A DNA stretch of 64,000 nucleotides from Psammoneis japonica (Eukaryota): NCBI GenBank assembly GCA_008632985.1, contig QPGO01000017.1, positions 558,001-622,000 of the forward strand, written 5' to 3'. Below are positions 17,670-43,333 of the stretch, piece by piece. Positions within the stretch are counted from its first letter, which is position 1; each line of letters starts with the position of its first letter. Position numbers and translations under genes: made by a program. The notes under the pieces were generated by a model. It searched no databases. It saw only the letters and a list, made by a program, of their open reading frames with translations, and was not told the DNA's origin.

Positions 17670-19660
17670 GAGAAAGGTTGGCGGGGCAGGAGCTTGCACC
17701 AAGCATGCCAACAAAGCCAACAAGGAGCAGACATCCATGGAGAGGAGTTTGCTGGAGTGGAGGAAACAAAAACTTGGCTGTGCTGCTGGTGTGCTCACCA
17801 GCTGGGCCACTGATGACATTGGCGCACTGAGAGAACACAGCTTTGTAAGCAAATGAACTGTCTTGTTGAGCAACAAGTCAGAAAAGATGTTGGGCACCAA
17901 ATGGCAACAACAAAAAGCCTGTGATGACACAACAAAAGAGGAGCTGCATCACAAACACATGCAATGTGATGACAGGGTTGTGGGCTGGAGCAGACAATGA
18001 ACTGTGCAACCTGAAAAAAAATGACTTTGATTGCAAGCTCATGACTGACAAGAAACTCTCACAATGAAATTGTTGTGTGGAGTTTGCACAACATTTTCTT
18101 TGCTTTGGAGCCTTTTTGGTGAACAAAATGTGGTTTGGCAAAAACTGCAGCCTGTGCCAATGCCAACAAGTGATCTGTCAAGTGTGACACTTGTCTGGGG
18201 TTGTTGCAAAAGCACCAGTTTCAGTGCTGCAAGTTGTTTGCAGGCAACATGCAGGAGTGGCTGGAGTCATGTGTCCGTTGCTTGTCCTGTGCATGTGATG
18301 TCCACAAAGTTGACTCTTTTGGCCTTGCATCCTCAACCTCACTTTGAAGTGCTTTCTTTGCAAAATTTAAGAAACTTGCCATGCACAGCAAAGTCTCTGG
18401 GCAGAATGGTTTGTGGCAAATGACTGAGCTGCACCACAAGATGCATCAATTGGAAATTGCCAGTTGCTTGAGGGCTTTGGTGCCCCTGTCTGAGGTGCTT
18501 GTCTGGTTGCCAATGAGTCAGAAGACACTCAAAACACAGAGCCATGTGCAGGTGGGGAAGTGAGAAATCCTGCAGAACTCTCAAACTGCCACACAGTGCA
18601 CAACTTCTTTTGCAGCACTCTTGTGGTGTGCACCCCATCAACCTCTGTCAACAAGAGTCCACAGCACCAGCACTGAAAAACCAAGCCAGCAACACTTTTG
18701 CAAAGCCCCCAGCAGTGCTGGCTGGCAAGGAATTTGCCCCTTTGTGGGGCAATGAAGCAACATGGTCCATCCCCCCTGAGATGCACAGAGCACATGAATT
18801 GTTCAAAGGCAGCTGAAAAGGGTGGGACACACTGTGGTTTGCAACTCTGAGCTGTCCAGAGAGTTTTTCAATGCAAGTGTGGCCAATGGTGGCACAAACA
18901 TCAGCAAAACAACAGTGCACCACAACAGCCAGAGCAAGGCCCATTCCCCAGCATCAAGGTGTTTTCCATCAGAGGGTTTTGCTGCACAGTTTATCAACAA
19001 GAAGTGCAAACACTTGTCATTGAGTTTGTTTTCAATGTCTCTTCAGCTGCCCTCATTGAATGATTGAAAAAAATCACAATGTCTTGGAGGAACTTCTTTT
19101 GGAGCAAAACCTTGTTGTGGAGGACCAGACAAAACTTGTGCCATTTGACTTTTCTGTTTGGCTCAATTCTTCACATTGTCATTTGAATCCCAAGTGCAAC
19201 AAGAACTTTTGTGTTGCATTTTTGGGTTCACCACAATGGCCAACATTTGCTCAAACCATGGATGGTGACTGTTTCAATCTCAGTTGTTGCAGATGTGACT
19301 CAACTCAACACATGCAACTGCACTCCTGGTGAACAATGTCAACATTTTTGGCTTCAGATGGTGCAAAGTCATCTTCTTCATCTGATGACATTGTCTTGGC
19401 AACCCATGCAACTCAAGCCATTGTCAATTCCTTGCAAACTTTGCTGCTGCACCTTGTTTTGCCAATGATGTTGCTGCTCTCTTTTTGCAACCACGAGCTG
19501 TCATCCACCATTGTCATCTCATGGAAACCACTGCTGCTGGTTTTTGCAGCATCTTCCCAAGCCAAAACTTTGCTCACATCTGTTCAAGCCAAGGCATTGC
19601 AACCCAACAACCACAGCAAATGCCTCCAGTCTGACAACATTTTGAACCATTCGAGACATT
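17670..19660. mobile_element. Heavily degenerated, unclassified repeat-like sequence, depleted of TpA and CpG
   Basis: Almost no TA or CG dinucleotides; only broken Cys/His-rich ORFs; same signature as the identifiable TE relics downstream. Confidence 0.4.
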
Positions 19661-19895
19661 GAGTTTTGTGCCGTGCACGCACCTTGCTTTTTTTTTTTGG
19701 GTGAGCAGGCCAGTCTACTGCCAGCTAGAGAGTGGAGTTCTTCCAGAAGCGATTTGAGTGCAAACACTGCACAGCACATTCCCCCCTTTCAATTTTTTCT
19801 ACATTGCTCGCACTCCATTCTAAAGCAGTCAGCAACTAGCCCACAAACAGAACAGACAGTGTGATGTGACCGTGTGATCGCGCCTTTCTCAATTG

Positions 19896-22193
19896 TCAAC
19901 GCAAGACGCAACCAATCCCTGTCTCTTCCGCGCAGAGTTCAAAGATCTGTCTGAACAATGGCATGGCGTCACTCGCAAGGATTTGATCTTCTGGATTATA
20001 GGCAAGCATCTTCTTCATGCAGCCAATCAGCTCCGACCCGCCCGTCACCTCTTGAAAACATTTCAATTTGGAGTTCTCAAAGACTTTGGTGCGGAGCTTG
20101 AGGTTTGCGTCGCGAACGGGCAGCTTTCCAGTCAGAAGGCAGTGCAGAATCACGCCACAGCTGCAAATGTCGACTTTGGTGGTGGTTCCTCCAAGAGTGC
20201 TTGGGAGCAGTTCTGGAGCTCGGTGCACACCCGTTCCAGGCCCTTCTGTTCCAGCGCTGTCTTCGTGAACGGTGCGTGCCAACCCAAAATCAATCACTTT
20301 CACCTCCATTTTGTCATGGTCACGTTTGTTGCCGTCAGGGCAACCCACATCCTTTGCAAACAAAATGTTCTGCGGTTTAAGGTCGCGGTGGATCACTTGC
20401 TGGCATTCGGCTGCACTGAGAGCAATCATGAGCTGTGCCATGTAGCGAGAGAGATGCGGCGAACCATGATCATGGCATCCACTTTCTTGAAATCTGCGAC
20501 AACAACATCTGACGTAGATCTGCTGCACTCTTCCATGAGCAACGCCAGAGCAACCTCACTCTGCTCCTCCTCCTCGTCCAGTCGAACATCCAAGACAAAC
20601 CACCCATGTAAGTTGGCCACGTGGCGTACGCCATTGAGCAAAGAGTGGCAGCACATTGGTCGACATCCACATTTTGGGATGTCGTCCATCGGGTGTGCCT
20701 CCAACTTGAGGACAGCCGAGAAATTCGAGAAGGCAACCGGAACAACTGTGTGACAGGTTCCAAAAGTGCCACTGTCAACCTCATCAGCAATGTGCAAGCG
20801 GTCAAGGTTCCAGACACATCCAGCAGCTGCATGCTCTAACACATCCTTTGGTTCTGGCTTTCCAAGTCTCTTGCGTTCATCATTGAATTGCTTGATCAAG
20901 TTGGGAAGGTCTTCAAGAAAGTGATCACTTGCATCTTGATGCTCAAAGTTCTCCAGACAAGGACGAAACATGTCACTCATTGTCTGAAGTCGAACAGGGA
21001 ACAGTGGTTCCCCTTTCTCCATCATTTCTGTGATCTTTGGCGCTAATTTCGTGTCGATTGTGCCAATTTCGGTCATCTGAGAAGAAGTGGCTGCAGGGGC
21101 TGTCGAGCTCGCAGCAAGGTTGCAGTCCACAGCAAAACTGTTTCCCGCAGCAACGGTTTCTCCAGCATTGTTGAACAAGGATCCGCAGCCCAACTCATGC
21201 AGGCAAGCTTTGGAATCGTTGAGGAAACAATCAAGGATGTCATGACCCGGATTGAGCTGCTCAAGCTCCATGTGGGCAGCCTCAGTGACCGGAAAGGACC
21301 GAGATCCAAGCTTCGAGAGCAACGCATGTGGAATGGTGATGGCCTCGGGGGTCATGCGGGTGCCACAGTCATCAGAGATTTGTTCCGACACGACCATCCA
21401 TGGCCACCCAGAATCCAAAACTCGACTGGGCCACTTTCTTTGTGACCAGTGCTGACTTCAAAGCGGTCTTCAAGATCTTCCTTTGCATGCTTGAGTTTTG
21501 CAGGAAAGCTCTTGAATGCTTGCTTCATGGCTGCACAGCGAGAACCAAAGGCCTCCACAATTGCGTCCGTTCCAACTTGCCCAAAAATGGCTTCCAACAT
21601 GACTTTTTTCACTGGCGTTTTGTGCGCAAAGCCTGTTTTCTTGCGGATGGATGCAACGCGGTTCTTGAGGTGTCGGAGAGCATCTTGGCAAACGACTGTT
21701 CTTCCAGGAGCGATTTGCAATGTTTGTCCCCTTTGTCACATGGAAGGAGGCTGTCGAGAATGTAAGAAGCAAACTCAAGGATGGCGGCATTGTCGCCGGA
21801 CTTGTTGAAATGGACATCGGGCACTTTGCTCGCATCAGCAGCAATTCAAGTCAATGATTGCCACAGCTGGGAAGGTCCTGCATGTTGCTCGTGTAAGACA
21901 CAACTGGTTCGCTCTGCCTGCAATTCAGCCAACAGCAAGCTTCCTAATTTGTCTGTCTTGAGAATGAATTTTTTCCTGCAGGACACCAAAGCTTCAGTGA
22001 TGGCCTTGTCGGCATCGAGGAGTTTGTTGGTCACAGCTTGGAAAGCCCCACGCAAGTCCATTTGGGTCTTTCCGAAAACCAGAGCATCTTCTTCCTCGAA
22101 GGCAATCTTGCTGGCAATCACATGATGCTCTCTGCGGTTTTCACCCCCATTGCGGGTGTGAGGCGTGGGCGCTGTTGACAACCGCTCCGTCAT
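19896..22193 (-). pseudogene. Ser/Thr protein kinase pseudogene with long N-terminal region, frameshifted
   Basis: SGTFGTCH, HRDLKPQNIL, VKVIDFGLA, GTGVHRAPE and KVDICSCGVILHCLLTGKLP spread over several frames. Confidence 0.85.
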
Positions 22194-22309
22194 GTTTCAT
22201 TTGTTTCCAAAGCAATCCACAGTCGCGTTGGATCACTGCTTGCTGCTCTCTGGAGCTAAAAGCTTTGGCTTGCTTTTTGCTTTGGCTTGTTGCTTGATGA
22301 TTTCTTCTT

Positions 22310-22790
22310 GTCAGAAGGCGATGATTCGGCCAGAAAATTGACTGAAATCAAGGGGAATTCTGGCTAAAGTGCGATTTGGAAATTTTGCGGCAAAAGCCAG
22401 TGGACATTCTTGCCAGAAGGCGATTCGGCGAGAACATCCGACTGAAATCGAGAGAAATTCTGGCCAAAGTGCGATTTGGAAATTTTTGCCGAAGAAGCCA
22501 GTGGATGTTCTTGCCAGAAGGCGATTCGGCGAGAACATCTGACTGAAATCGAGGGAAATTCTTGCCAAAGTGCGATTTGGAAATTTTTGCCGAAGAAGCC
22601 GGTGGACATTCTTGCCAGAAGGCGATTCGGCGAGAATTTCCGACTGAAATCGAGGGAAATTCTGGCCAAAATGCGTTTTGGAAATTTTTGCCGAAGAAGC
22701 CGGTGGATGTTCTTGCCAGAAGGCTGTTCGGCGAGAATTTCCGACTGAAATCGAGGGAAATTCTGGCCAAAGTGCGATTTGGGAATTCTT
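22310..22790. repeat. Tandem repeat, 101 bp unit, ~4.7 copies
   Basis: gccagaaggc recurs at 22412, 22513, 22614 and 22715; unit gccagaaggcgattcggcgagaatttccgactgaaatcgagggaaattctggccaaagtgcgatttggaaatttttgccgaagaagccggtggacattctt. Confidence 0.95.
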
Positions 22791-22859
22791 GGCCTTTGCG
22801 CGCGCTGCCGCTTCACAGGTCACAGGGGAGACTTGTCCATCCGCCCTGCTGCGTCAACT

Positions 22860-25800
22860 CCGAAAAGGACACACGAAAGATGCGCGCGGCAACGAGGACG
22901 GTGTGCATTTAGTGGATGTGCACGGGCTGTGTCCAGGAGGCGATACGAACGTCGATGCTGGTGTCGGCTTTGTCCTGTTCATGAGGGACGACGTTGACAA
23001 AGCTGAGCTCAAGCGCACGGTGATTCATCGCAAGTTTGTCCATTTACCTTGTGTGCAGAGACAGCGTCACAAGTTGCGAGGCCGCACGGGTGCCTTGGAC
23101 CAAGCACCAATCCACTGAAGACGAGCGCAGCGTTCTTGTCATGGATGGTGACCGTGGACAAATTGATGCAAACACGGTTTCCCCACGTTGGCGGAGGCAA
23201 GGGATGAATCTGAGAATGACGAAAACTCCGGTTGGCGGTTCGATTCCCCTCCGACTTCGCTCGTTCATAAGCTCATCTACTCATGTTACAAGGCTCGGCA
23301 CCTTCCTGTCATTTATGAAAAAAAGGAACTACCCAGTGAGACCACAGCTCCTGCTCCTGTCCTTCCAGTTGATCCTGCTAACCATGAGGTCAGTCGTCTG
23401 CGCCATTCGAATCCGATGTGGCAAGCGAGTGCGGTCAAGGTTGTAGACGAGTTCATGTCTTTTGGTCCGGAGCAAATGCAACAAACCGCGCAGTTAGTTC
23501 CGATTCTGATGCAACGACTCGAGACACACAAACGTCAGCGACTCAAGAACTATGACACTCACCGCAACCACTGGACACTCCAATGGGCAGAACAGAATCT
23601 ACTGCTGATGGCGGCTTTGATGGTCAGCCGCGGCCACATCCTCCCAAACATTGAGTTTCGGAGTGGTGCTACATCCTTGTTACTCCACCCAAAGGCACAG
23701 TCTGAGAAGTGCACTGGAGATCGTCACATGAAGGAAGGTGCGTACGGATTGTGTCACTTCTGCACACCCGTTAGGTCGGGAAAGAATTCAGGTGCCAACA
23801 CAAATTTTGGAGTGCGAGACGATGAGCATCTAAAGTGCTCTAAACTCACCGAATCTAAGCATGTCAACAATGCTCTCTATTCCTCGTATCCATCCAAGGA
23901 AATCGGTCGAGACATGAAAGAGCAAATCAAGTCACAACAGAAAGGATGGTATGAGGATCTTGAGATGGTCACATTCTTTGGGTGGTCACGCAGTGATAAA
24001 GACATCACAAATTTGCTTACCTCAGAAGGCCCTGATGGCTTGTTCCAATGGGATGCCGAGACCTTGAAACACCTAGAAGAGTCTAAAGTCGGTGGTACTC
24101 TTTGGTCCAAGAAATTGGCAATGGTAGGTTATCTGGCTGAGCTTGCCCACGATCTCTGTCTCGGCGAAGACAATATCTCTAACTCCCCTGGATTCGAAAG
24201 CTTCGGGTTGCTTCAGATTCACCTGAACTAGGACCTAGAGACAAATGGTGTCCTCTGTAGCTTTGACAGCTGCTGTCTCACGCGCATTGTCCTCCGGTGC
24301 GAAGCTATCTATACGGGTCAAAAAGAACAATGAACTGCGTTAGTCTCAGTGCTAAAAGGGGATATATAATACACAACTTCTCAATCACACTTACCTTTTG
24401 CACCAAGTTCTAATCAAAAGTAGTGGCACTCTCTACTAGAGAGTTCATCCTACAATAGCGGAGACTTCTGCGCTTAGGCCGGTACCGTCTTCATTACTAT
24501 ATGGCTTCTCGCGCACAGCCGGCACCGTGCTCCCTACTGCTAGTAGAGAGATATCTTTCCTGTGTCTTAGAATAGTAGATCAGTAAGTCATCATTCGAAA
24601 TGGTGAAGTATGCACACACACACTCTACAGTAAGCATACGGTACGTACCGTCCAGAAGCAACAGCTTTTACGCCTACACTCCATCCCACATTTCATCGAA
24701 TAGTCATACATCTCTACTAGATCCGACTAGGAACTGAGAGCTCCAGGATCTGATTTCCCCATATGAGTAAAGAATATCAAAAGATATCTATCATGTAGAA
24801 TATGGGCCTGGAAATGCCACTGCAAGCTTTAACAGCCAACGATAGTCATACTGGAAAATGACAGGCAAAATTAAGATATGAGTGGAACAACGTACACAAT
24901 AACAATCCATTGGGGTTACATATCACAGTATACTCACTAGTGCACCTTTTAGAGGTAGAGCTGAGTCGCCTTACCAATTATTATGCCCCCAAGTACCATC
25001 AGCGGTTCGTGGCATACACGCATTCAAGAGGAGGCGATGAGCCCGCCAACACAAGCATCAACCTCCCCATTTTACCCATTGCAAAGCCTAGAGTCATAGT
25101 TACACCACAAAGATCTCCCAAAATAACGCGGACAATATCATGTCTTAGATAATGATGATAATGCGGTTGAAGGGTAGGTGGAAAGGGTCAAAAAGGACCA
25201 GATACCTGCACGCATGAACGAGACGCACAAAAAAAGGCTCGTGAGGTATGAGAATTTCGTCAAAACGAGTCTAAAAGCCAATCAATCACATTGTACTCAT
25301 AGGATTACCTTTTTTGGACTATGATAAGACTGTCTGACAAATGCCAATGTCGTAAATGTCCTCCAGGCTCCATCGCGTCGTTTTGTTTTCTCGGCATGCA
25401 CTTTCCAAATATTGTGACGGCCGAAAAACGACATGCCATGATTATGCGCCGACCAAGCCCCCAAGAAGGATATCAAGCGCGTCATAAATCCATATTAATA
25501 TACATAATAGGTACACCAAAGGATGTAGAGTGGGATGAGGCATAAGGCTCTCAAACGGATACGCTGTGGTGGTGCAAACGCCGCGAAAAAAACACCAACA
25601 TCACAGATGCAACAATCGACCGCACGAGACGATCAATCCACCTATGAAGCTTTAACAAAGCGCAAACAACATCTTTAGTGAGCATGTAATTGGTGTAAAA
25701 TGAGAAAACAAAGAAAGAACTTACCTCTGTAACGTTGTCGACCATTCAGATGTAGCCCGTACCGTGACGCAATCGAGTCACGAGTCGAGGCACGCAACCG

Positions 25801-25910
25801 TTTATACCGTGTGTCGCAACCGAAGCCCCCCCGGAAACCAAACCAATGTATCAACCTCTTTATAACAACAATAGAAAAAGATCCCCCAAGAAAGATACGT
25901 CAGCCCAACG
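22860..25910 (+). mobile_element. Internally deleted repeat element, probably a DNA transposon; ORF 23188-24231 plus 3' non-coding part; homologous to ~56950-59190 in inverted orientation
   Basis: Clear homology to the minus-strand copy from ~23183 onward; upstream piece has a possible DDE-like motif VLVMDGDRGQIDA; superfamily not established. Confidence 0.6.
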
Positions 25911-26181
25911 AAGTTTGCCATGTCGAGACACATCAAAGTGCAACATGCCGTTTTTTATGCCAAATCGGGAACGTTTGAGTCCAATCGACTTATTCGACTC
26001 ACGTACTTCATCGTGGTGAAATTTCAGTCACGGACGCCGGGAACGTTTGAGGCCAGCGGTAGCCTGTGTCGTCGATACCGGTAGATCTGACGTCCATTAG
26101 CTTCAAAGCTGTACCGGTATCCTCTTTAGGCTTCTTAGGTATCATTGTTGCAGTCCGTTTCTACCTTACTCATCCTTCAGT

Positions 26182-26560
26182 ATGGCGAACCGTATTCTTC
26201 CTCTCGAATTGATCGATAAAGCTATCGGATCGCAGCTGTGGATCTTGATGCGGGGAAAAACAGAGATTGTTGGCACGCTTCGAGGTTTTGATGATTACGT
26301 AAGTGACGGTACATACGTCTTACCAAATCTTTGGTTTTAATCGATGACTCATTTCGTTTTGTTCGATTCGTTTTGTGACTGTGAAGGTAAATCTTGTCCT
26401 GGATGATGCGGTTGAATATGCACCCGACGCAACAAACGAAGGACGAGTCACGAAGACGGAACTAGCAAGCGAAATTTTGCTCAACGGAAATCAGATAGCT
26501 GTGCTAGTTCCCGGGGGAGCAGGGCCACCAGAAGACTCGTTGGTGTCACGCGCCGGATAG
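26182..26560 (+). CDS. LSM5: U6 snRNA-associated Sm-like protein LSm5; exons 26182-26298 and 26387-26560
   Basis: MANRILPLELIDKAIGSQLWILMRGKTEIVGTLRGFDDY/VNLVLDDAVEY...ILLNGNQIAVLVPGG; GTAAGT...AAG intron; exon 1 is absent from the ORF track. Confidence 0.95.
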
Positions 26561-26599
26561 AAGTGACACAGTGTGGGGTCGTGACGATGACCAAATGCG

Positions 26600-28170
26600 A
26601 GGATCCGGACGACTGGGGACAATTTCGATAATCCGCACACAACTGTGTGTCGCGAATCGTCAGTGGTGATGTCATTAAAGTGCTGTAGTAGTGCATGGGA
26701 TACTGCAGTAGCATTTTTAAACGAGCGCGTCGATTCGGATGTAGGGCCCTACTTGTGAAATTGTAGAGCTGCAAATTGGCTGTAACAGCTCTTGCACGTC
26801 TCCAACCATGTTCAAAATACAACTCGCTCTTGGCTTGATGGAGTTCTGTTTCAGCACCGGCCACAAACTCCAACCTGTTTACCTTTACCGCACATACTTC
26901 AAGCTTTAAATTTCATGTTCGCCGTTGCAACCAAGTCGAGAGACAGTTCTACCGTGCGACAGACAACACAGAGCTCTCGTCGACTCTCGGAGGTTGGCAT
27001 GTCCAGGCGTCATGCATTCTCATCACGGCCAACAAATAATGCTTCAGCACGTTTCTCAAACAGACGTCCTGCCAAATTCTTGGTGAATAAATGTAGACCA
27101 CCCATTCATACTCCTCCTAGTCTCTGGATCTTTAGCATGCTCAGAGTCACTCTTGCCACTTGCCAGCCATCTCAAACAAATGATTCTTGCTGCCACCCCA
27201 CTTTGCAGTCAGCTTCAAACACAATCCTTGATTCGGAATCGGCACACAACATTTCATGGTGCACTTGAAAGCCTCAAAATCTGCCGATGCAGCTCCTCCT
27301 ATGAACCTTGACAATTCCCCAACTGAACTCAACAGCTCTGGGCATGTCCAGCATGTCATGTGCCGCAATTTTCCGACTTCAGAACGGCATTTCTTCTGTT
27401 CAGTCTTGCACAAAAGATTCCATGCTTTGCCACTCATGAGTGTAGATCCTCCTGCAGCTGGTGCAGTTGGCACCTTTCCTTCCAGCAACTCAAACTCATC
27501 TTCAAAACTCTGACTCACAGCTGGCTGAGTCAATTTTGCACTTCTGCTCTCTCGATCAATGTCAATCTTGTCAAACCCCAGACATTCTTTGAGGTCTCCA
27601 ATCTCATTGCAATTAAACAAAATTGTCATCTGCTTCTTGGCTTCTCAAACACAGTGCTTTGGTCCACAAATGAAGATGTTTTCAACCCTTGTCAACCACA
27701 TGACCAATCTGCCAACAAGCCACTTGAGTTGCAAACAGGGGTCATCAGCCTCGCTTCTCTCATGTTTCAGTTTTTTGAGAGCCTTGTTGATTTCCCGCCA
27801 GAGTGCAATGAATGTGTCATTTGCAATGATGACAATGTGACATCCCCTGAACAGAACCCTTCATGTCCTTGTGGCATTTCCATGTGCAGTTGTTTGCCCT
27901 CTGCAAATGGGCCCATGCATGATGCTCCTTGCATGTTCAACAACTGACTTGGCCCAGTGCAGTGCCCCAAGCAACGGCCCCAACAATGCAGTCCATGCAG
28001 CAATGTAATTTACAACTGGCACAGACATTTTAAATCCTTGCAGTGCTCTCCTTTCACTTGTTTGAATTCACAAGCATTCGTGTGAACCCCAAATTCTCCA
28101 CTCATGGCTTTCTGTTTTCCATCACCCAAGTCAAACTTGGAATTCTTGCATCCTCCAGGATGCCCTTGCA
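26600..28170 (-). mobile_element. Ty1/Copia remnant: RT-RNaseH 3' part and probable 3' LTR
   Basis: Decayed RT (QLLNMQGASCMGPFAEGKQLHMEMPQG; FDKIDIDRESRSAKLTQP) and pol C-terminus LFTKNLAGRLFEKRAEALFVG. Confidence 0.75.
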
Positions 28171-29539
28171 AGCACAGCAAACACTTGTGAGACACTCTTC
28201 TCTAACTGCAGAAACACTGGCTTGGAATCCCAAGGGTTTCTTCCTTGAGACCTTCTTGTCAAAAGCTGCAGGCAAGTGCTGTGTCACATTTTGTGGTGCA
28301 CCGTGTGTGTTGAAATGTCCCAAATTGACAATGCCGACATCTCACCCATGTGCAAGCCCTGCCAAAACTGCAGAAACACACCAAAGCATGAACGTTCAAT
28401 GGAGTGAATGGTGCCAGCAATGACACAACAGCGTCATGTCCTCAACAAACCACAGCATTGTTTGTGCCCAAAAAATGTCCGCAAAATAAAAGCCCTCTTC
28501 TGCCAGGTGATTTTTGGGCCTTGGCAGCAAAGCAACAACAAGTGCAACATGTCTGCAATGACAACAATGGGCAGCACTGACAAGAACAAGTTTCTAGATT
28601 GCAGCACTTTGTGAACAAGTGAACAAAAAAGTCACATTAATTTGTGCAGAAAAACTCCATGGGGCTGCATCTGCAGGTGTCTGACAAAAGATTGGAGCTT
28701 GTTGTGTGGTTGTTGCCACTGCAAAATTGGTGGGCAGTGGATGTGAACTTTGCTTTGCATTCCACAAAAGAGCGCTGTTCCAGTTCCAGCGCATGAGAGC
28801 AACAAACACACACACGCCTTTCCCTTGAATCATGTCAGAGAATTTGAATGGGTGCAAAGACATGGGCACCTTGTGATGGTGAAGTCAAGCACAAAATGGC
28901 TTTGGTGGAGTGTGAGGACAGTTTGAAGGACAATGTGCTCAGTGCAGCAGAGACAACAAGTTCTCACACCCACAAAAACAAAACAAGGTGAGGGAAATGT
29001 GACCTGGTTGGAAAATGGATTGATCCTGGGCTTTTTTGCTCTCCTGAGCTGCAAATGGGTCAAGTGTTGAGCTCATTGGACACCCACTGCAGTGAGACAA
29101 AAGGAGAGTGCCACAACCATCACTTCCAACCACACTGTGAAAAGACATTGCTTGCAGCTTGAAAGCAAAGCCATCTTTTGACATTGCATGATGGCAGGTG
29201 CAACTCAGGGGTGCTCTCAGCATCAGAGATCCCACACAGCAAGACCAGTGCTGCTGCAGCCATTGCTTTCTTCAAACACAGGGTGCTGCTTTGGCTTGTG
29301 GGTGGCAGGCTGCACTGTGCCATTGTGATTGCCCCAACATCTTGCCCTGCAAAGCACCCCAGCCACTGTCCACTGTGCTGGCTTTCAACACCCACAATTG
29401 TCGAAAGCAAGGAAAATAAAAAAAAGCAGAGCTCGTGGGCTGTCCACAATGTTTTTGCACCAAGGATGCCATTTTGTGCAAGGGCTGAAATCACTCTAAA
29501 TGGAAAAAATGCTCTTGGTTTGCAGGCCAGGCATCATGC

Positions 29540-31540
29540 AGATGATGCCCACCCTGCTGGAAGCAGACATGGGACAACAAGATTGTGCAAAGACAAGGAC
29601 AAAATTGACCAAGATGACTGAAAAGCTGCTTGAGCAAACAAGCTCTGTGCATTTGTTCCAGATGCCCTGCACTTGCCATTTTCCTTGGTTCATTGCTGCC
29701 CTTCCTGGTGCACAGACAAGGTCATTCCATGTCACCACTCTTGCCTTGTCATTTCCATGTTTCCATTCTTCCACACACCTGAAATGAGCAAAGGTTTGGT
29801 TCATTCTTGACTGCCAAGGGGCATCTTGAGCAAATGACACAGAACAATGTGCCGGTGACAACCGTTGAACAACATGGAGGTGGGTTGGTTGTGATGGGTG
29901 GGACTCTTGCCACATCGAGCACAGAAGACAAGATGACAAATGACAAAAGAAAGAAGAGGCAATGCAATGACAAAATGAATGACAGGGACAAAATTTTTTT
30001 GGAGAACTGCTGCAAGAACACCTTGTTCACACAACACCAGTTTCTGAATGAAAGGCCATCACCAACAGTGATGGCAGGGTTGCAAAGATTGTGCTGCACA
30101 AAATCAACATGCCTCAAAAAAAGAGAGCATGATTTTGGGAAATGTCGAAGGACAAGGCATGAAGGCAGATGACAAAAAAGAGGAACAATGCAAGTGGGGA
30201 ACTCAAGAAAGGATTCTTCCACAAGCACTGCATCAAAATGGAGTGTGCACAATGTGGGGCAATGGAAGATGGCTCACACACACTGCTTGGTGTTTTGCAA
30301 GTGAACAGGGCATGTGGATCATGAGAAGAGAAACACACAAGCAGATGACAATGCCAAGATGCCATCTCTGGACAAGATGCTAATAAAGGGGGAGAAAGCA
30401 TGAAGGCCCACAGCTGTTTCACCCTGCACTTCCTGCCAGCAGTTGTGGGAAAGATGATGTGGAAGAAGCACTGGCTCATGTCATGACATTGCTTGAACAA
30501 GTTGGCATCTGCGAGCAAAAAGTCATTTGGCCTGCTGGTTTTGGAGAACAGCTGGGGTGAGTGGACACACATCATGCATGGCAAAACAAAGGAAGAGTTG
30601 AGGGAGGAGGCAAAGAAGGAGGGGCTCATTCTGGAGGCAAAGCACAGCAATGGGGAGGGTGATCAAGCAAAAAGGAGTCAGGGTTGGAACAACGCAGGAC
30701 CAGAAAGGTGCAAAGAGTTGGGAAAAACAACTCACAAGCAGAGATTGAACAAGAACACAGATGAGTGCAACAAAGTTTGGTCAAGGCAGTTCTGGGAGTG
30801 CATGGATGGGACAGAAGAGACCCAAGACAATGATGGTGATCAGTTGCAAGCAGGAGACAATGAAGAGGAAGACATCAAGAGAACTTGGATTTGTGGCTCC
30901 CAGAGGTGCCACAACAGGCAGCTGTTTAAATCGACATTTGGCAACAATTTGGCAAAATGAAATCCAACAGAATCAACAGACCAGGCAAATTAAAAAGGAC
31001 AAGAACAAAACATGGATGCGGTGAGGGAGGGCACATGAGAAATGCAACAAGAGCACTAGAGTTGTTTGTGCTGTGGGACCAACATTGCAAACAAGGCACC
31101 CAAATTGTCAATGAAGCACATGGGTGTTGCTCCCTCTGTTAAATGTGGCAAAACCCCAAATGCAATGAGCCCAAAACCCACATTAAAAATGAAAGACAGA
31201 CCCAAATTGTTCAATTGCCCCCCAGGTGAATTGTTCTCCCCTCTCTGATGCCTTGCTGGCAGCAGACATGGGACAACAAGATTGCACAAAGACAAGGACA
31301 AAGTTGACCAAGATGACTGAAAAGCCACATGAACAAACAAGCTCTGTGCATTTGTTCCAGATGCCCATGCATGGGCCATTCTCCTTGGTTCATTGCTGCC
31401 CTTCCTGGTGCATGGACAAGGTCACTCCAGCATGTCACCACTTGCCTTGTCATTTCCATGTTTCCATTCTTCCACACACCTGAAATGAGCTGGGGTTTGG
31501 TTCATTCTTGATTGCCAAGGGTCATCTTGAGCAAATGCAA
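29540..31540. repeat. ~290 bp direct repeats (~29540-29835 and ~31245-31535) flanking a degenerate ORF
   Basis: gcagacatgggacaacaagattg...gctctgtgcatttgttccagatgccc...catttccatgtttccattcttccacacacctgaaatgagc occurs in both. Confidence 0.85.
29930..30900 (+). pseudogene. Degenerate TE-associated ORF, homologous to 61164-62395
   Basis: ASKKSFGLLVLENSWGEW...GWNNAGPERCKEL versus ASDEAPALLTLENCWKSW...SWKDAGIKRFNEL. Confidence 0.55.
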
Positions 31541-33014
31541 ACAGAGTCACATTGTTGTTGCAGCACCAGCTGTGCTGATGCCTGGCACACATTTTGTTCT
31601 GGAGAGTGCAAGAGTCCCAGGACAGGACCCCCACACTCTTTCTTGAACCTTGGTGCTTTAACAAAGACTGGCTGCCATGTCACTTCAAGTCATGTGGTTG
31701 AGCTGGGAGGGAGTTTGACAAATGAGAACAAGAAACAAGCGGCAGCAAACAAATCATCATTTGAATGATTTGTTCTGCCAATCTGGTGGAACACCCAACA
31801 CATTGCCAGGCTCCTTGTCTGCTTCAAAGACTTTCTCCCCCACCGGAGCAACTTCCTCCTCAGCAATGTGGTCATCATCAAAAACAGCAGAAGCAGGGCT
31901 TGAAAGGGCTCCTCAACTTCTTTCACTGGGACAATGATGGTTGCAACATTTGATGCCCTCAAACACACAGATTTTGGTTCCAATCAAGCCCAGCAGCAGT
32001 GCCACAGCCAACTGCTGATCATTTGGGATGGAAATGGCATGGGTGGAACATGGGTGCATCAAAAAATGCAGTTGGCAGCTGCATGGGACAGGGCTGGAAG
32101 AGTGTTGCCAATGTGAGCATGAGAGGCACTTGGCCTGGTCTCCATTTGACACAACCATGACCAGCTCATGCTTTGACAACAACAGCAAAGGGAGCCACAA
32201 ATTGCACACAGGAGTGCAGATGACAAAAATGCCCAGTGCATGGTTCATGCAACAACACAGGGGCAACTGCAGCAGTTCCACAAGCTCAGCCACAAAGAAG
32301 AGCAGCAAGGTCATTGACCTTCACACCATGGCGGCAGTGCAAAAAACAGGCAGCAACACCAATTGGCTTGATGGTGAGGGGGAAATGAAACACAAAAAAG
32401 CTGCAGCAAGCAAAATGAAAGCAGCAACTTTGCAGAGACCCCAACAACAAAAGATGCCAACTCCTTGATCATGCAAACAATCTTTTGCACACAGCAGCAG
32501 CCCACAAGAACACACACAAGTCCCAAAGGAAGGTGCCAACTCATCTGTGGCTCTGCTTGACATGAAATGTGCACAGCATGGGAAGTTCACAGTGTGGCCA
32601 GTGCAACAATGTGGCCATGGCAGAGGCAGTGTCATTGGCAAGCAAAGACAGATTGCATGCTTCAATTCAACAAAAGTTGGGTTTTCTTGGTTCATGAAGA
32701 TGGGGCAGAAATGCACTGGAGAAGCCTGCAGAAAACCCAACAACCCCCTCCTGCTCACAATCATCAATTTTTTGTGGGGCGTTGGTGGTGGATTCTTTGC
32801 ACAGGGTCACCCACAGGAGGCTCTGTGTGAAAGCAGCCAAAGACAAAGGTGCTTGTTGGATTTGTCCACAGCAAACTCTGAAATTGCCTTCAATGTTGGC
32901 TTGCTTTGAGTGGGCCCCATGAATTTTCCTGAAGGAGGGCTCACTGTGACATGACACACATTTTTGCAAAAAACATGGTGCACCTTTGAAGCTGTGCAAA
33001 AAAGATCCTCTCCC

Positions 33015-33159
<145 letters not shown>

Positions 33160-33169
33160 AGACCTGCCA

Positions 33170-33930
33170 TTGCACCGCCATCTTGTCTCACTGCTTCTGA
33201 AGCCTCCAAGGCTTTGGCTGCAATTTTTCTTGCTTTTTTGCAATCCTGAGTTCTTTGGGTGGGTGGCTCTCAGCTTTTTAGCACAGTGCTTTCTTGGCCC
33301 ACAAATGAAGCAACTGTCAACACTTGTCATCAACCACACGGCCAACCCATCAACAAACCACACTTGAGCTGCAAACAGGGATCAGCCTCACACACTCCTT
33401 TCAGGTTTCATTTTCTTGAAAGCCTTGTTTTGACCCCCACCAGAGTGTGGCAGCAGCTTGCCTCTGCCAACGGTCCATTCAAAAATGTGGCATGTTCAAC
33501 AACTTGGCCCAGTGCAGTGCCACAAGCATCAGCACCAGTGCCATCTGAGTGGTGATGTTGTCATTTGCAAGCAGAGCCAGCGAAGCAAGACCTTCGAGAT
33601 TCTTCTTTTTGGCACTTTTCTTCCACTTTTTGTTTGAACTCACAAGCACTTGTGCAAGCCCCAAATTCTTCATTTGCCTTTTTTGTTGCCCAGGTTGAAC
33701 TTGGAATTTGTGCATCCTCCGGGGTGTCCTTGCAACCACTCAGCTCCCAGACGTTGCGGGCAAGCCACAAACAGCTGTGTGTGGTGGTGGTGTGGTGGTG
33801 GTGTGGCCTTCTCCAACTGCTTCATCCCAGCACGGAGCATCAGATGTCTTCATGGCTTGACCATGCTTTGTCACTCTTCATTCTAACGTGTTCTTGAATC
33901 CAACGCCAGGCCCAGCTCCAACCAATGGGC
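33170..33930 (-). mobile_element. Ty1/Copia RT fragment, second copy
   Basis: Homologous to ~27600-28170 and ~44940-45680; DAQIPSSTWATKKANEEFGACTSACEFKQ resembles the Copia RT N-terminus. Confidence 0.75.
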
Positions 33931-34164
33931 AAGGGAAGTTTGACGCAAAAAGGGCAGGTGTCCTGCCAGGCAAAGCCTGTCATCGTGCGGCGCGCCAAAA
34001 ATTCTTGCTGCGGTTGACGGACGTGCGGCACCGCAGGCACCGCAAGCGCCAAAGCAACAGCAACAAGCAATGACAACAGCACAACAGCGGGTCTTCGTTG
34101 TTGCAACCTTGTGAAGTGCAGAGCTTGTCTTTGTTGTGTCTACTCCCAGTTGTGTGTGTGTGCG

Positions 34165-34850
34165 ATGCCTCCGACGAAGAAGCAGAACAGATCCCAAGCT
34201 TCCATTGACAAGCGGAACGCAACAAAGCGGGAGCAGCGAAGGTTGGCAAACGAAGAAAAGGAACGAAAGGCCCTCATCGCTGAAGCGCGCACGAAGAAGA
34301 ACACGGAACGCATGAAGAAGAAACGTGCAGAACAGAAAGCGAACGAGGGAAAGCACTCGAATGTCGGGGAGGTCCCAATGCCAGCTTCCGGTGCTGTCGC
34401 AGCACCGGCCGAAAACTTGTTTGCGGCCATTTTACCCACTCTACCGGTGAACCATCAAACTGCCATTGCTTTGTGGGATCAGCAAAACCAGCTTGACCGC
34501 GAAATTTACCAAGACGAGCTAGTCAGCATCAAGGACGTCGCGAAGGCAGTCGCGAAAGAAGCGTTTGCTCAGATGAGGCAGAGCAAGGCTGATCTCAAGT
34601 CGTCGACTGAAAATCGCACCAAGGAGATCATTGCGCTACTTACATCCTTGCAAGGAGAAGCGGAGACGGCGCCTCACCCAGCGGACGATACGGAGGAAGA
34701 GGAACAAGAGGAAGCGGAAACTCCGAAGAGTGAGCAAATGAAAAGGCATATCAAATACGTGGCATGCACTTTCTTTTCATCATGTAACTCACATATGCAC
34801 GTCGTGCCATTCCTAAATCACAGAATCTTTTCTCTCGCGCGCGGACGGTA
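34165..34850 (+). pseudogene. Unknown Lys/Arg-rich coiled-coil protein, copy 1, 3'-truncated
   Basis: MPPTKKQNRSQASIDKRNATKREQRR...; paralog at 45940; probable intron donor near 34729. Confidence 0.5.
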
Positions 34851-37361
34851 GCGAGGATTCGGTTGATGACCACGATTCTACCACGGACTCCGCTAGAGGG
34901 TGACGATTCTGCCAACAAGTCGAATCTGTAGTATTTGTTGTCATACGGAGCGGTGATTCATTTGCAGAGAAACATCTCGCTGCACTCATCGCAAGCAGCC
35001 CTGGTGCAGTATTTCAACTTGTCGATGGTCCTCGCACCGTCAACATGGTCGGTCCACAAATAGTGTAGGGTAGAAAACGTTGCTATTCTAGTAATCAGAT
35101 TGTATCGGGGAATAACTTTGTTGCTTATGTAGGACGCATTGTGATAGCACTGTGCCGGTACAGTAGTTTAATATGGAATAGTTCATTCCGCGGTTTTTGT
35201 TCGGGAACCCACGTGGCAATTGGCTTTGCGCTTCACAAACTGAAACACGTTGTGCTTCAATTACTGCACAGGCTTCGACATACGGGTAGATCATTCGCAA
35301 AACTACTGTACGTGTACCGTATTCCATACAACGAACTGAATTGATCTTACTCACTCGCTGCAGATAACGCCACACCGGCGTCCTTATCCCTGAGAACGCA
35401 AAGCGGCGTCGATAGAGCTCTGCTTTTTCTACTTACTCCCTGTGACAGAGAACATGTCATCGTGGTAGCGTTGAAATAATGCGCAACACTCCTCGAGAGC
35501 AAAACCCTTCCATTCTCGACTCTTGGCGACGTTTACCAATAATGTTGGCGTCAACAGCCACAATGTATTGACGTCAAAGTCTTTCGGGACGGAGTATGTA
35601 GACACGGTCAATGCTAAACATCCCTGCTTACAAATCGGGAGAAGGCGTACCGATTTGAATTATCATTTACCATCGCTCGGACCTAACGCATACTTTACCT
35701 CTACGTCCAAAAATCGAGGATAGCTACAACTTCCCGACTTTCCAGGACCTGAACAAACGCGTCGGAGCTCGTCTCTCATCCATAGTACTGACCAACGGAA
35801 CCGCACTGCCTTTCAACAAAAATGGGCCTTCTCTGCTTCAGAACATTCTCTTCTTCTCACCAGGTGGAAGAGTATCATTTCCCACCATACCATAGGGAAA
35901 CTGGACCACCAGAACCTTGTCAAAACAAGCTTGCTCCTCCTTTCAATCTACTCGGTGTGCTCGGACGTCGTTCTGGGACCTGGGTTCGTCATTTCCTCTT
36001 GCTTACTGATTCGACACACATTGCACAAAAGAGTGCAATGAGTTGACACAGAAGTCTCTCTTCACCATCTCAGTGTTCAACTCAACACAGAATACCCTGA
36101 ATCTGATGACGTCGAGAGGGTCGTTTAGGTCATGGTGCTGTACCGGGAAATCTAGCCCAATCAACGATCGCTATGGCCCTCTGGAGGCCTCCTCTGAATT
36201 GTGCCATCCGGCGCCCACGGTTGCAGCAGCGTGGTCAGGGGCACTTTTCGCAGCTGCCAGAAAGTTGAGGAGCATGGCAAGCATGGCTTCATGGAACACC
36301 CTTCTGTGGGTTCCGTGAAGGTCCTGTCCATGCAGGAACATGAAGACCAAGGGTCCTCATTGGCTGCAGAGGCACAGAGTGGTGCATCAGATGCTCTCAT
36401 TCAGATCAAGAGGATCAGGGGTGACCCAGCTGGTCCAAAAGGTCATGCCCAGGGTGGACAATTGTGCATTTAAATGTAGATGGGGCAGCTTGTCAACAAC
36501 ATTGGGAGATTGTGAAAGGTCTGCGTGATGCGTGTGTGCTCATTTTTGAAGTGTGGGGGTGGAGAAAAGTGCAGGAAGCACTCCATTTTGGATGGAGAGG
36601 TGGTGCTGATGGTGGAAAAAGATTTGGTGTTGCCAACAAGTGGGCAAAACATGGTCTCTGTCATTGAGTTCAGAGACTTGTGGCTCCCTCAGAGCAAGCC
36701 AGCAGCATTTTGTGGGGAAGTGCCAGTGTGGACCAACTGGCAGCAAACAATGATGCTGCAATGGCCAGAGCAAGGAAGGTGCACCCTGGTTGGTGAGTCA
36801 GCAACTTCTTGGAAGCCACTCAGGGGGGAAGGTCAATGCCATGGGATGGGCTGCTGGTGGGCACCAAACATGGCATCAGCTGGTCTGGGAAAACATGCCT
36901 GGTTGAGCACTTCCAGCCAAGTGTTGCACTGCTGGCAGCAACCAGTGGAAAATGTTCTGGGCAGGAGTTGAGAGATCTTTTTTTCCAACCAACCCACTGG
37001 CTTTGGAGCCATTTTAAGATGTGCTCCAGCTCTGGGTGAGACCCTGCGCTGCTGGACTTTGATGAACATTTTTTGATCATGCACTGCACACACATTTCTG
37101 TGCACATGCTTTTTCACATGCCGGGCAAATGGTGCCAACTTGAGCATTCATCGAGTTGTCTGATTGCAGATTGCATTCCATGCACTCTCTGGAGTGTTGG
37201 CATCATGCAATGTGTGCTGGTGCAATGCTGTGTCCATGGTGATGCAATGACAGGAAGACAGATGTTCATGCAAGTGCTTGCAGATTGTTGCCCTGGCAGT
37301 TAGCAGGTCATCAGTTGTGCATTGCATCACAGTTTTAGACAACAAGCCCATTCAAGAGCTC

Positions 37362-37661
37362 TGTCAGAATGCCTGACTGCACACTGCAAGAACAAACTGA
37401 CAATGTTTGCCAGCATGTTTGGACTGATGGAGAGTTTGGTTGTTGCAGCAAAGCAAATTCACAAATTGTGAGTGGAGGAGCAATCTCCATTTGCACTGAG
37501 CATTGAATGGATCCCCTTTCAACACTCCACAGAGGGATTCTCCTGAACATTTTGCAGTCACTTGAAATTGCAGTCAAGTCCGCAATGCCCTCATGACTGA
37601 ACATCTTCTGAACATCTTCTGCCAATGTTGTCAACTTGAGCATGATGTTGTTTGTTTGACA
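37362..37661 (-). repeat. 3' LTR of the Copia element
   Basis: TG...CA termini; homologous to 43334-43648; preceded by the polypurine tract. Confidence 0.85.
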
Positions 37662-40600: not shown

Positions 40601-43333
40601 ACAACTCTGCCAATGCATTTTCTTTCTGCCAATCTTCCTCATATGTCGTGACTTGGGGCAGACTGGTGCTGCACCTGTGCCCTTGGGTGGTCCATCTAGA
40701 TTGAATTGAGTGACAACTGGAGATTGTCCTCCAACCCTGAGGTGTGCTTGTGCATCATTTATTGCTTGGCACAGTGCAAGATGGCCTTGATCAGATTCAA
40801 GGTCCAGGTGCATGTCACCAACCGAGAAACATCGGATTCTTGTTCCTCATTGTCTTCCTCTTTATCACTCACAATGTTTGCCTTGTTTGCTTTGACAGGA
40901 TCATTGTCTTTTCAGTGGCATCATGTGCTCCAAATTTGGTGCAAAAGGCTTTGAACTGTTGGCAGCCAGGAGCCAGGAGCATGGCCAAATGTTGCAACAT
41001 TGGTTTCTGCACCAAGGGGAACTGCAAGTTTATTTTTCTTCTGATTCCAGCACACCAGAGTGCATTGCTTGAAATCCATGATTTTCCCTGTGCCCTCAAT
41101 TGGCTCACAGTCCTTTTGTGTCTTTGCCCAGTGTTGTGGACTTGGTGGATGGATCTCACCATCAGGCACACAGTGCAAATTTGGAATCTTAAATTAGTGA
41201 GCAGCCCCATTTTCATTGCATCATTGCCAGATCAATGTGCCCATCATGACTCCTGTCACTCTTGACCCTCCCAATCCTTTCACACTGCTTGCTTGCTTGG
41301 AACAAGCTTGCTGACAAAGTCAGTGCGGCGTTGGATGCACATCAGGTGCACTGGTTGTCCATGCCTGTGGGTCTCGAATCCACACCAAATTGAGCCACAT
41401 TCTCTCATTTGAGAGCATCATTCTGGGCCATCATGCAGATTGCCAGGATGGCCCCAGTGCTGCTGTCATGCCCATTGAATGTCTTTGGCAACATTTGCTG
41501 TTGAACTTGCTCAATGGCTCTTGGGCTTGCCTGATTCTCCCTCTTTGAGATTGCTTGGCTGTGGACAGTCAATCAACTCTTCTTCTGACATGTCAACCAG
41601 CTCAGTTCCTGTCCATTGCATGCTTGACTTGGCTTGCTGCAACAATCTTTCACGTTTCTTCCAACCCTTTGATCATGGAATGCATTGCAGAACTGGGTTG
41701 GCATCAGGACATTTGCAAAAGAGAACAATGAGATGGAAAATGACAGCAGTCAGCAACACACAAGCTCCGGTGACAAATTTGATTGGAGCACCTTTTGCAA
41801 TTGCTCCCCTCTTGACAATTCACAGACTGCGATGGAGATCCAATTGCAGGACACAACTGTCTGCACAAATTGCATTGGCAGCAGCAACAGTGGCACAACC
41901 ACAAATGCAGTTGCTTGCCACATTGCAAACAACATCATGCAGAAAGCAAATCAATGGATTCCCTGATCAGAGTTGGGTTTGCCAACTTGCTCAACAAGTC
42001 ATTCTTCATTTGATGATTCAATCTCATCTGCAATGGCAGTGAGAGCTTCAGGCAGTTTCAGCAACTTGAGGTCCTTTGGAATCTTGGTTGTCAGTGCCTC
42101 ATCTCTCTTTTTGGGAGGACATTTTGCACCTCCAAGTTTCCAAGTGAGGAAGGCTTTTTCCTTTGCAGGCCAACAGTTTGTGGATCTGCTGCGTTCCATC
42201 ACATTTTCTGCCCATGTCCTTGTGACAATGACAGCACAGCTTGTCATTCCAGCATTGGGGCTCATCAAGCTGATTGTTTGTGGGTCTCTCAATTCTCCAA
42301 CCAAGCAAAAGGCTTCTAACCATGAGTCTTCTGTCCTCCTTTCTTTTGACTCTTGGCATTGCCTCTTTCTTTTTAGCATCAGATTTTTTGCCACAAGATG
42401 ATTTCTTGAAGGCATCAACTTTGGCTTCTAGAGCCAGAATCTTCTCCTTCTTCAGGGATGGAGTGCTCCACTCATCACTCTGCACCATCTTCTTGCACTT
42501 GTTTGCCACAAGTTTATGAGTTTGTTGGGGTCCATGTCATTTCCTTCATCATGCTTGCAACAGATGCAATTTACAAAGGTTTTGTCAGATGCTGCAAGGT
42601 GCCCCTCAAATTAGTTCAATTTTGAGATCTTTCACAGTCTTGCTGCCATGAGACTTGAGAGCTTGCAACAGGACTCAGGAGGAGCATGCATTGATTGAAT
42701 TTTGTGATTTCACTTGATGCTGTGCCAACGTGCTTGTCAAGATTGCTGAGTTTCATTCTGATGCTTGTCACAGCTGCATTGGTGTTGAGAGGTGACTTTC
42801 TTGAAAATTGTTGCCTTCAACAGAAGGTTTCCCAATGGACATGTCTTGTTGTTCTTGAGAATTTTACACTGTTTCCCCCAGACCGGAATTCTTGTCTTTC
42901 CTTCTTCAGAAAGTGCACTCACAGGAAGGTGACAAAGAGCATCCTTGTGTCTTGTGCTGGCCTCACCAGTTGGTTGATGCACATGTGCTTGCAGCCATTG
43001 ATGGATGAGGTCCTTTTCAATTTGACCACAGTGTGTCAATGAATTGGCGGCATCAAATGTGGTGTCCATTGGATCATGAGGAATCATCAAGATCCCATTT
43101 TCTTCATTCCAACCATTTTTGGCAGCTCTGTCTTCAAGAGTCTTGAGGAACTGAACAAGTTTCTCCTGTGAACAGTCAAAGCCATTTGGGGCATGATTTT
43201 CTTGACTGCCTTGTTGCAAATGGCTCAATGTGCCTTTTCCACAAAGTCAAGAATGCCTGTGATGGCCTGAGCAGGTGTCAGAGAAAATGCCATGATGCCC
43301 AACCATCTGTTCTGTCTCACCACAGAGGAAGCT

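Follow-up and report, generated by a model that had tools for sequence, protein, structure and literature searches.

In Neurospora and other fungi, repeat-induced point mutation (RIP) changes C to T at CpA, which yields TpA and raises TpA and AT content. In animals, APOBEC and ADAR enzymes edit the single-stranded cDNA or double-stranded RNA of retroelements and viruses as these replicate, leaving strand-biased marks on new copies. A preprint by Mettrop et al. (2026, bioRxiv 10.64898/2026.01.13.699255) describes, in its accessible text, A:T>G:C hypermutation restricted to TpA in integrated viral DNA of Bigelowiella natans, documented in mutation-accumulation lines. Diatom genomes hold CG-methylated islands of transposable elements (TEs), of which the younger are direct targets, according to the accessible part of Hoguin et al. 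(2023, PMC9998398). The sequence examined here is a 64,000-nucleotide window of Psammoneis japonica contig QPGO01000017.1 ("the window"; all coordinates are window-relative), in which long blocks have been stripped of TpA and part of these of CpG as well. Judged from duplicated units within the window, TpA loss and CpG loss appear to be separate processes.

Several features recall the giant-virus and virophage DNA of B. natans as the available text of the preprint describes it: only TpA is hit, giving TpG or CpA according to strand; and TpA depletion goes with CpA and TpG enrichment in particular regions, with ordinary genes normal. Other features differ. B. natans is a chlorarachniophyte and P. 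japonica a diatom; the changes are fixed substitutions here and new mutations there; the targets here include a kinase pseudogene, a duplicated open reading frame (ORF), and an inverted-repeat element, with nothing recognisably viral; and depletion is far deeper here, with observed/expected ratios (o/e, the dinucleotide count over that expected from base composition) of 0.02-0.17, compared with a Rho of 0.45 in the B. natans viral region. CpG decay and its relation to TpA loss are not discussed in the accessible text of that preprint.

As in RIP, hypermutation by transitions is confined to DNA that is repeated or silent, may reach into neighbouring unique sequence, and inactivates genes. Unlike in RIP, TpA is destroyed and GC rises (0.49-0.51 in the TA-erased blocks), and duplication alone is insufficient: the duplicated copy A, introduced below, and the duplicated genes of unit P2d are untouched by mutation. 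The context-specific, deaminase-like signatures on mobile DNA resemble those of APOBEC and ADAR, but here resident DNA is altered, on both strands. The change of CG to TG/CA in repeat islands, with host genes at a CpG o/e of 1.0, matches CpG decay in diatom TE islands as far as the available part of the published account (PMC9998398) describes it. It differs in being near-total, with 98% of CpG lost at about 6.6% neutral divergence per lineage, which by our own estimate needs a CpG rate about 30 times the background transition rate. A full-text literature search, which did not extend to the supplements of Mettrop et al., turned up no account of TpA erasure in diatoms, nor of how it relates to CpG decay. 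New here are the in-window paralogue control, the native TA-poor, CpG-rich stretches, and the failure of a dinucleotide clock against paralogue divergence.

Uncoupled loss of TpA and CpG

The preliminary description of this DNA held that 19.7-23.1, about 33.9-34.4, and much of 53.5-62.4 kb keep CpG but are poor in TpA, and that 17.7-19.6, 27.2-33, and 36.3-45.5 kb have lost both. Counting bears this out in the main. Positions 19670-23180 contain 22 TA against 213 expected (o/e 0.10) and 173 CG against 225.5 (0.77), with TG+CA at 1.41; positions 53500-62400 contain 76 TA against 576 expected (0.13) and 312 CG against 528 (0.59), with TG+CA at 1.57. Where both are lost, o/e lies at 0.02-0.10: TA 0.02, CG 0.03, and TG+CA 1.94 at 17.7-19.6 kb; 0.05, 0.10, and 1.84 at 27.2-33 kb; and 41 TA (0.06), 30 CG (0.06), and TG+CA 1.87 at 36.3-45.5 kb. 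Host genes at 1-17 kb have TA at 0.64, CG at 1.00, and TG+CA at 1.12, and the composition of the genes at 1-17, 24-27, 34.4-36, and 46.3-49 kb is untouched. In TA-erased, CpG-kept blocks, TG+CA rises to 1.41-1.65, against that 1.12 in genes. The summed frequency of TA, CG, TG, and CA is nearly constant over the classes (mostly 0.22-0.26; 0.19-0.22 in a 101-bp array), as expected if TA and CG convert into TG/CA.

The window was tiled into 128 non-overlapping 500-bp windows, those with a TpA o/e below 0.3 being called TA-low, with a CpG cut of 0.3. Fifty-one are normal, 40 are low in both dinucleotides, and 35 are TA-low with a CpG o/e of at least 0.3; the remaining two are one CG-low window that is not TA-low (a boundary window at 17501) and one with normal TA and intermediate CpG. 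The 75 TA-low windows are contiguous. Since 40 of the 41 CG-low windows are also TA-low, CpG loss is nested inside TpA loss; TpA erasure thus came first, reaches wider, or both.

Ancestral composition was controlled through duplicated units within the window, found by self-BLAST. (Self-comparison in a purine/pyrimidine alphabet, which sees through transitions, gave no homologies beyond those of ordinary BLAST.) Unit P1 provides an unmutated and a mutated copy:

23184-25911, plus strand: copy A of P1, unmutated, found by self-BLAST; P1a is 23184-23979 and P1b 24462-25911
56951-59188, minus strand (inverted): copy B of P1, TpA erased, CpG kept

P1a lies inside an intact ORF (23167-24228; 354 aa), P1b is non-coding, and TA o/e in copy A is about 1.0 at 24-25 kb. 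At 101 sites where copy A has TA, copy B has TG or CA in 79 and keeps TA in 22; changes in the reverse direction number 2. CG in copy A has become TG/CA in copy B at 30 of 93 sites, and the reverse (lost in A) is seen at 13 of 76. Within copy B, TA and CG conversion differ with Fisher P = 9e-11; CG loss in B and in A differs with P = 0.03. Measured against an unmutated copy, the uncoupling of TpA from CpG is therefore real, and the claim that the two do not scale together holds once ancestry is accounted for.

The TpA change is context-specific. In copy B, A>G after T occurs at 0.36 per base, compared with 0.07-0.10 after C, A, or G, and A>G outside TpA is symmetric between the copies (30 versus 26), with no excess in B. 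The P1b conversions are nearly equal by strand (TG 34, CA 32). In the coding part of copy B, seven Tyr codons of the ORF of copy A have become His or Cys, and relative to A the copy carries a 1-bp deletion and a 482-bp gap. The 354-aa ORF itself belongs to no Pfam family and has only two distant relatives, both metagenomic, at 33% identity. Because its homologue in copy B sits inside an inverted-repeat element, the gene may be carried by that element or have been captured.

The adjoining kinase block offers a second case, next to a tandem array:

19514-22304, minus strand: kinase pseudogene block; TA 18 (o/e 0.10), CG 110 (0.63), TG+CA 1.51
19899-20555 and 20429-21457, both minus strand: kinase C-lobe ORF and upstream ORF
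22305-22791: 101-bp tandem array, 4.8 copies (Tandem Repeats Finder, period 101)

The kinase (Pfam Pkinase, E = 9e-26) has one frame change between the C-lobe ORF and the upstream ORF, and retains the HRDLKPQN (HRD), DFG, and APE motifs; with these intact, it looks like a recently killed gene. At all three columns where at least 30% of 148 homologues have Tyr, the window kinase has other residues (His, Cys, and His), and Cys makes up 6.4% of its ORF, against 1.1% in homologues. At the gene baseline about 103 TA would be expected in 19670-22304, and 18 are present (Poisson P = 7.5e-25). The kinase block was thus truly TA-erased. Its C-lobe relatives are all at most 49% identical, too distant for its ancestral CpG to be reconstructed, and the N-terminal kinase ORF has no relative found. 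The block and the right arm of the insert described below (59189-62858) both adjoin unit P1 and are both about 3670 bases long. A proposed correspondence between that arm and 19514-23183 was rejected, as neither blastn nor tblastx found similarity, and the equal length is treated as coincidence.

The 101-bp array is another matter. It contains 1 TA and 31 CG (o/e 1.23), with TG+CA at 0.97; no more than two columns of its unit are candidates for ancestral TA, and only one of them (CA/TG/CA/TG across copies) points to conversion. The array is an amplified unit whose TA poverty is mostly native. The earlier reading of the TA-poor, CpG-rich stretches as products of TpA loss accordingly stands for the kinase and for copy B, and falls for the array and for 34113-34400, discussed next.

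Duplicated and inserted DNA

A segmental duplication, X/Y, supplies further units:

26099-28168 plus 33273-36222 (X) and 43694-48564 (Y): segmental duplication, found by self-BLAST
26099-27086, plus strand: unit P2a, copy X, normal; CpG o/e 1.0-1.46, TA 0.6-0.8
43694-44532, plus strand: unit P2a, copy Y, both dinucleotides lost; paralogue of 26099-27086
27634-33735: 6.1-kb element with flanking direct repeats (27634-28171 and 33267-33735); TA 18 (0.04), CG 32 (0.09)
33871-34400, plus strand: TA-poor, CpG-rich stretch, largely native; promoter/5' region, then the start of a Lys/Arg/Glu-rich ORF (ATG 34165)
36250-45600: large block without both dinucleotides, including a second repeat-flanked element, 37354-43648

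Relative to copy X, P2a copy Y has converted 37 of 37 TA and 42 of 43 CG, keeping one, at an other-site divergence of 13.2%; CpG conversion runs at 0.40 per base, compared with 0.11-0.16 for other G>A. Because Y lost both while X stayed normal, ordinary DNA between repeat-flanked elements can lose both. Unit P2b is depleted in both copies. TG/CA sites that are discordant between X and Y mark independent conversion in each copy, and P2b has 25 in 729 aligned bases, so most conversion post-dates the X/Y duplication. Taken with the losses of P2a in Y relative to X, both processes post-date it. The duplication itself is old (about 13-15% neutral divergence over 26099-36222/43694-48564), and carries a paralogous Lys/Arg/Glu-rich gene without a Pfam family as well as a 129-bp indel at 46515-46644.

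The 6.1-kb element resembles a long terminal repeat (LTR) retrotransposon in its flanking direct repeats, and contains no Pfam domain; where X holds it, Y has one repeat copy only (44935-45478). Inside this doubly depleted element, a (CA)72 microsatellite lies at 33015-33159, after the single N of the window. The repeat pair of the second element differs by 7.3% transversions.

To the right of the 6.1-kb element, the run of discordant TG/CA sites ends at about 33870 in X (45610 in Y), with 0-2 per 150 columns beyond, and CpG resumes there; the TA and CG boundaries therefore coincide near 33870. Positions 34113-34400 are about 97% identical to 45890-46177, and their coding part has no TA, 21 CG, and a TG+CA o/e of 1.01. 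Most of 33.9-34.4 kb, and likewise 45.9-46.2 kb in Y, is native in composition. A fringe of TA loss extending beyond CG loss had been considered for 33.5-34.25 and 45.25-46.25 kb; the column-by-column comparison rules it out.

Additional sequence came from contigs of three sequencing runs, of one sample and one study; the sample is probably the source of the assembly. Counts of difference types between contigs and window rest on the 40 differences listed among 403: 15 are TG/CA in the window and CG in the contig, 9 TA versus TG/CA, 3 CA versus TA, and 1 window CG versus contig TG, with 5 other transitions and 7 transversions. In the doubly depleted block of Y, a contig of 1822 bases shows 11 differences from the window; at 5 of these the contig has CG and the window TG/CA, so CpG is still being lost there. 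Another contig carries five TA>CA differences in 55 bases (46730-46784), all plus-strand T>C and with no CpG change. It accounts for about 19% of local depth in X1, is the sole X2 contig there, and lies in otherwise normal DNA beside the Y gene. This is suggestive of recent TpA conversion, all in one strand orientation, over a short patch of an allele or paralogue.

The rest of the affected DNA comprises an insert, its flanks, and further blocks:

56360-62858: 6.5-kb insert with 11-bp terminal inverted repeats (CATCATCAGAG), containing copy B; TA o/e 0.17, CG 0.60
62859-64000: right host flank of the insert; TA 1 (0.02), CG 7 (0.08), TG+CA 1.93
53250-56359: TA-erased block with intermediate CpG; TA 12 (0.06), CG 94 (0.51)
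51251-53250: block low in both, between two CpG-kept blocks; TA 4 (0.03), CG 26 (0.20)
49250-51250: TA-poor, CpG-kept block containing a short high-copy repeat; TA 22 (0.17), CG 95 (0.78)
17700-19513: block low in both, adjoining the kinase block; TA 3 (o/e 0.02), CG 3 (0.03), TG+CA 1.95

The 11-bp motif is exact at 56364 (plus strand) and 62851 (minus strand). A contig of the same sample joins 56359 to 62859, and represents the empty site in another copy or allele; with an uninterrupted host contig, the insert must be younger than its host DNA. Its target duplication is possibly 2 bp. The ORF scan found no Pfam domains and no transposase in the insert. Positions 53288-53314 match the left end of the insert (56359-56385) at 21 of 26 bases, a marginal match (score 16, shuffle maximum 14). 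This segment includes the inverted-repeat core with one mismatch, and sits exactly where CpG resumes after 51.25-53.25 kb; 53288 is a possible inverted-repeat-like end.

Over 44-49.3 and 51.3-56 kb the contig depths sum to about 120-330. They reach 18000-42000 at 49.3-51.3 kb and 1000-4150 across 56-64 kb (3100-4150 in the right flank), save for two bins at 58.7-60.0 kb (387-675). The peak reflects a very-high-copy short unit in 49337-51337 (49847-50096 and 50954-51205); contig joints bypass the roughly 1.1 kb between its two copies. The two repeats, at 49.8 and 51.0 kb, have 6 discordant TG/CA sites in 250 bases. Their use as an LTR-type clock was rejected: depth and joints indicate a high-copy short unit, whose copies were maybe non-identical on arrival.

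The window as a whole is eukaryotic, with compact genes. Ordinary genes at 1-17 kb, identified with Pfam, encode Got1/Sft2, an alpha/beta hydrolase, a Rad51 paralogue, Nop56/58, a THOC3-like WD40 protein, PSP1, and others; the top named relatives of the Nop56 ORF are from diatoms (Pseudo-nitzschia, 80% identity; Stephanodiscus, 76%). The Pfam scan covered 387 stop-free ORFs: 106 of the 128 with at least 120 aa; all 141 of 60-119 aa in 17.5-19.7, 27-33.6, and 36-45.6 kb; and 140 of the 143 of 60-119 aa in 19.7-23.2 and 49-64 kb, three running off the window end being dropped. Among these 387 ORFs there was no transposase, reverse transcriptase, integrase, or viral domain (a few matches at E 0.002-0.003 fell under the curated cut-offs), and no stretch was identified as a TE copy through its protein domains. 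In 17700-19513, none of 26 ORFs of 60-119 aa had a Pfam match.

Age, state, or ancestry

Two processes would account for these patterns. The first would be a TpA-specific A:T to G:C hypermutation that turns TA into TG or CA on either strand. It would work in sharp-edged blocks on repeat and transposon-like DNA; would also strike gene copies in or beside such DNA, such as the kinase pseudogene and copy B; and would reach 70-100% conversion with few other changes. The second would be a decay of CpG to TpG/CpA, complete in only some of the TpA-erased blocks, and most likely due to deamination of 5-methylcytosine (5mC) in CG-methylated islands, a reading adopted because diatom genomes carry CG-methylated TE islands. 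TpA erasure would be fast and near all-or-none for each block, and the CpG rate probably set by the methylation level of the block.

How the two relate in time is less secure. The preliminary description had TpA conversion saturating earlier than 5mC deamination, or independent of it. That TpA loss is a process of its own is supported by copy B and by the nesting; that it comes first has indirect support from the nested insert, the divergence of P1a, and the intact kinase motifs. A CpG-kept insert beside a CpG-lost right flank is what a time order predicts. In P1a, copies A and B differ at 21 of 795 other sites (2.6%); in the non-coding part next to it the figure is 191 of 1440 (P = 5e-19). 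Copy B was therefore conserved until late, or A and B derive from lineages of a mobile family. On balance we lean, with somewhat better than an even chance, to the reading that the doubly depleted blocks entered the mutated state earlier, and the TA-poor, CpG-kept ones later.

Several observations weigh against this order. CpG o/e is bimodal in the 75 TA-low windows (38 below 0.2, only 5 at 0.2-0.4, and 32 at 0.4 or above), and residual TA and CG are uncorrelated within the CpG-kept class (rho 0.04); together these suit a pair of discrete states no less than a pair of ages. To the left of the insert, CpG is kept (o/e 0.58) to within 59 bases of the junction, compared with 0.08 in the right flank, so that either the host is composite at the insert or CpG loss is patchy. 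The doubly depleted flank at 62.9-64 kb occurs in multiple copies at 90% likeness, and likeness between copies is therefore no proxy for age. The divergence of A from B may stem from mobile-family lineages and not from how long B has been in place. Moreover, no TE protein domain was found in the TA-poor blocks among the ORFs scanned. P2a and P1b have the same other-site divergence (13.2% and 13.3%; P = 1.0) with 98% and 33% of CpG lost (P = 2e-14), and transversion divergence in doubly depleted pairs (3.1-10.5%) overlaps that of non-coding TA-lost, CpG-kept pairs (7.2-8.8%). Age as measured by paralogues therefore fails to predict CpG state: among TA-erased sequences, CpG loss does not rise with this independent measure, which is paralogue divergence and not time in the mutated state.

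The proposed two-stage clock, with TA-poor, CG-rich DNA as young and doubly depleted DNA as old, finds no support in these comparisons, or in the native stretches. On the sole test available here the ratio fails as a dating tool, and yields no calibrated clock; what survives is the relative youth suggested by the insert, P1a, and the kinase, not an age calibrated by paralogue divergence. A separate observation concerns transitions outside TA, CG, TG, and CA. Their ratio to transversions is 0.95-3.5 in doubly depleted pairs (27415-28171/44711-45478, 27634-28171/33267-33735, and others), 0.4-0.5 in the CpG-kept P1a, P1b, and pair d, 0.7-1.3 in normal gene pairs, and 1.0-1.5 among the 101-bp array copies. 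The relative excess in doubly depleted pairs may come from deamination of non-CpG cytosines.

The same data bear on an alternative in which the two classes are fixed states. Here the TpA mutator would act on all silenced DNA, for example under repressive histone marks, and CG methylation with its CpG decay only on a subset, for example LTR-retrotransposon islands and the DNA between them; TA-poor, CpG-kept blocks would then retain their CpG for good, as a stable unmethylated class. The bimodal CpG, the equal divergence with unequal CpG loss, and the overlapping transversion ages all suit it, as do sharp CpG steps within continuous TA-erased DNA at about 19.5, 51.25, 53.25, and 62.5-62.9 kb. 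The small size of the excess CpG loss in B over A fits too, and so does the sorting of sequence types: a pseudogene, an inverted-repeat element, and short repeats keep CpG, and both repeat-flanked 6-kb elements are doubly depleted. According to the accessible part of Veluchamy et al. (2015, PMC4504042), H3K9me2, H3K9me3, and H3K27me3 each mark about 40% of the TEs of Phaeodactylum, so repressive chromatin could be broader than 5mC. Fixed states sit badly, however, with P2a, whose copy Y lost both dinucleotides though copy X is ordinary, such that CpG loss is not tied to sequence class; with the CpG-kept insert nested beside a CpG-lost right host flank; and with the recently inactivated look of copy B and the kinase. 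We regard this alternative, including its stable unmethylated class, as unlikely but deserving of serious weight.

It is quite improbable that CpG loss, instead of being passive 5mC decay, is a second, switchable arm of a single deaminase defence that drives both self-complementary pyrimidine-purine steps, TA and CG, to TG/CA, with the A arm acting first and widely and the C arm all-or-none on a subset of blocks. Deamination of A as well as C in DNA is reported for enzymes of the ADAT2 type (cited in the accessible text of Mettrop et al., 10.64898/2026.01.13.699255). Bimodal CpG, sharp CpG steps, nesting in 40 of 41 windows, and the 98% CpG loss at about 6.6% neutral divergence per lineage are compatible with such a defence.

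Composition could also be inherited, the stretches having been TA-poor from the start or copied from an already scrubbed master element, in which case TA content would be uninformative on their own age. This does hold for three stretches: the 101-bp array, 34113-34400, and the paralogue of the latter, with no discordant sites between the two. In the multi-copy part at 58.8-62.6 kb, moreover, the best-supported differences are window TG/CA versus contig CG at 5 places, with none versus contig TA, which hints at a TA-free state common to the copies (a weak hint, as 40 of 403 differences are listed). For the window at large, native composition is highly doubtful as an explanation, and so is the uninformative TA content that it implies: copy B lost 79 TA present in A, with 2 in reverse; Tyr columns of the kinase read His or Cys; TG+CA is raised to 1.49-1.65 in the main blocks; and the discordant sites between the 49.8- and 51.0-kb repeats are about as many as independent conversion would give.

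ADAR-like A-to-I editing of double-stranded transcripts, fixed in the genome by reverse transcription with CpG decay as unrelated background, has in its favour the T 5' of the altered A, an ADAR preference according to the available discussion of Mettrop et al., but is very improbable given near-equal strands (P1b, above; TG 307 and CA 310 in 19670-23180), paralogues that diverged in place after duplication, and effects on sequences that do not go through reverse transcription, namely a pseudogene, an inverted-repeat (DNA-type) element, and non-coding DNA.

Records of silencing in diatom repeat islands

If TpA erasure and CpG decay are separate layers, in speed or in reach, diatom repeat islands hold two independent records of silencing. 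The TpA layer would then mark the DNA that the cell has identified as foreign or silent, host gene copies trapped next to repeats included; the CpG layer would record which DNA was CG-methylated, and for how long. The case would tie A:T>G:C hypermutation, for which Bigelowiella natans is so far the sole published instance, concretely to the 5mC system already known, and shows how to tell the two processes apart when transposons are dated. It also carries a warning, for a TA-poor, CpG-rich composition alone is no evidence of hypermutation or of youth.

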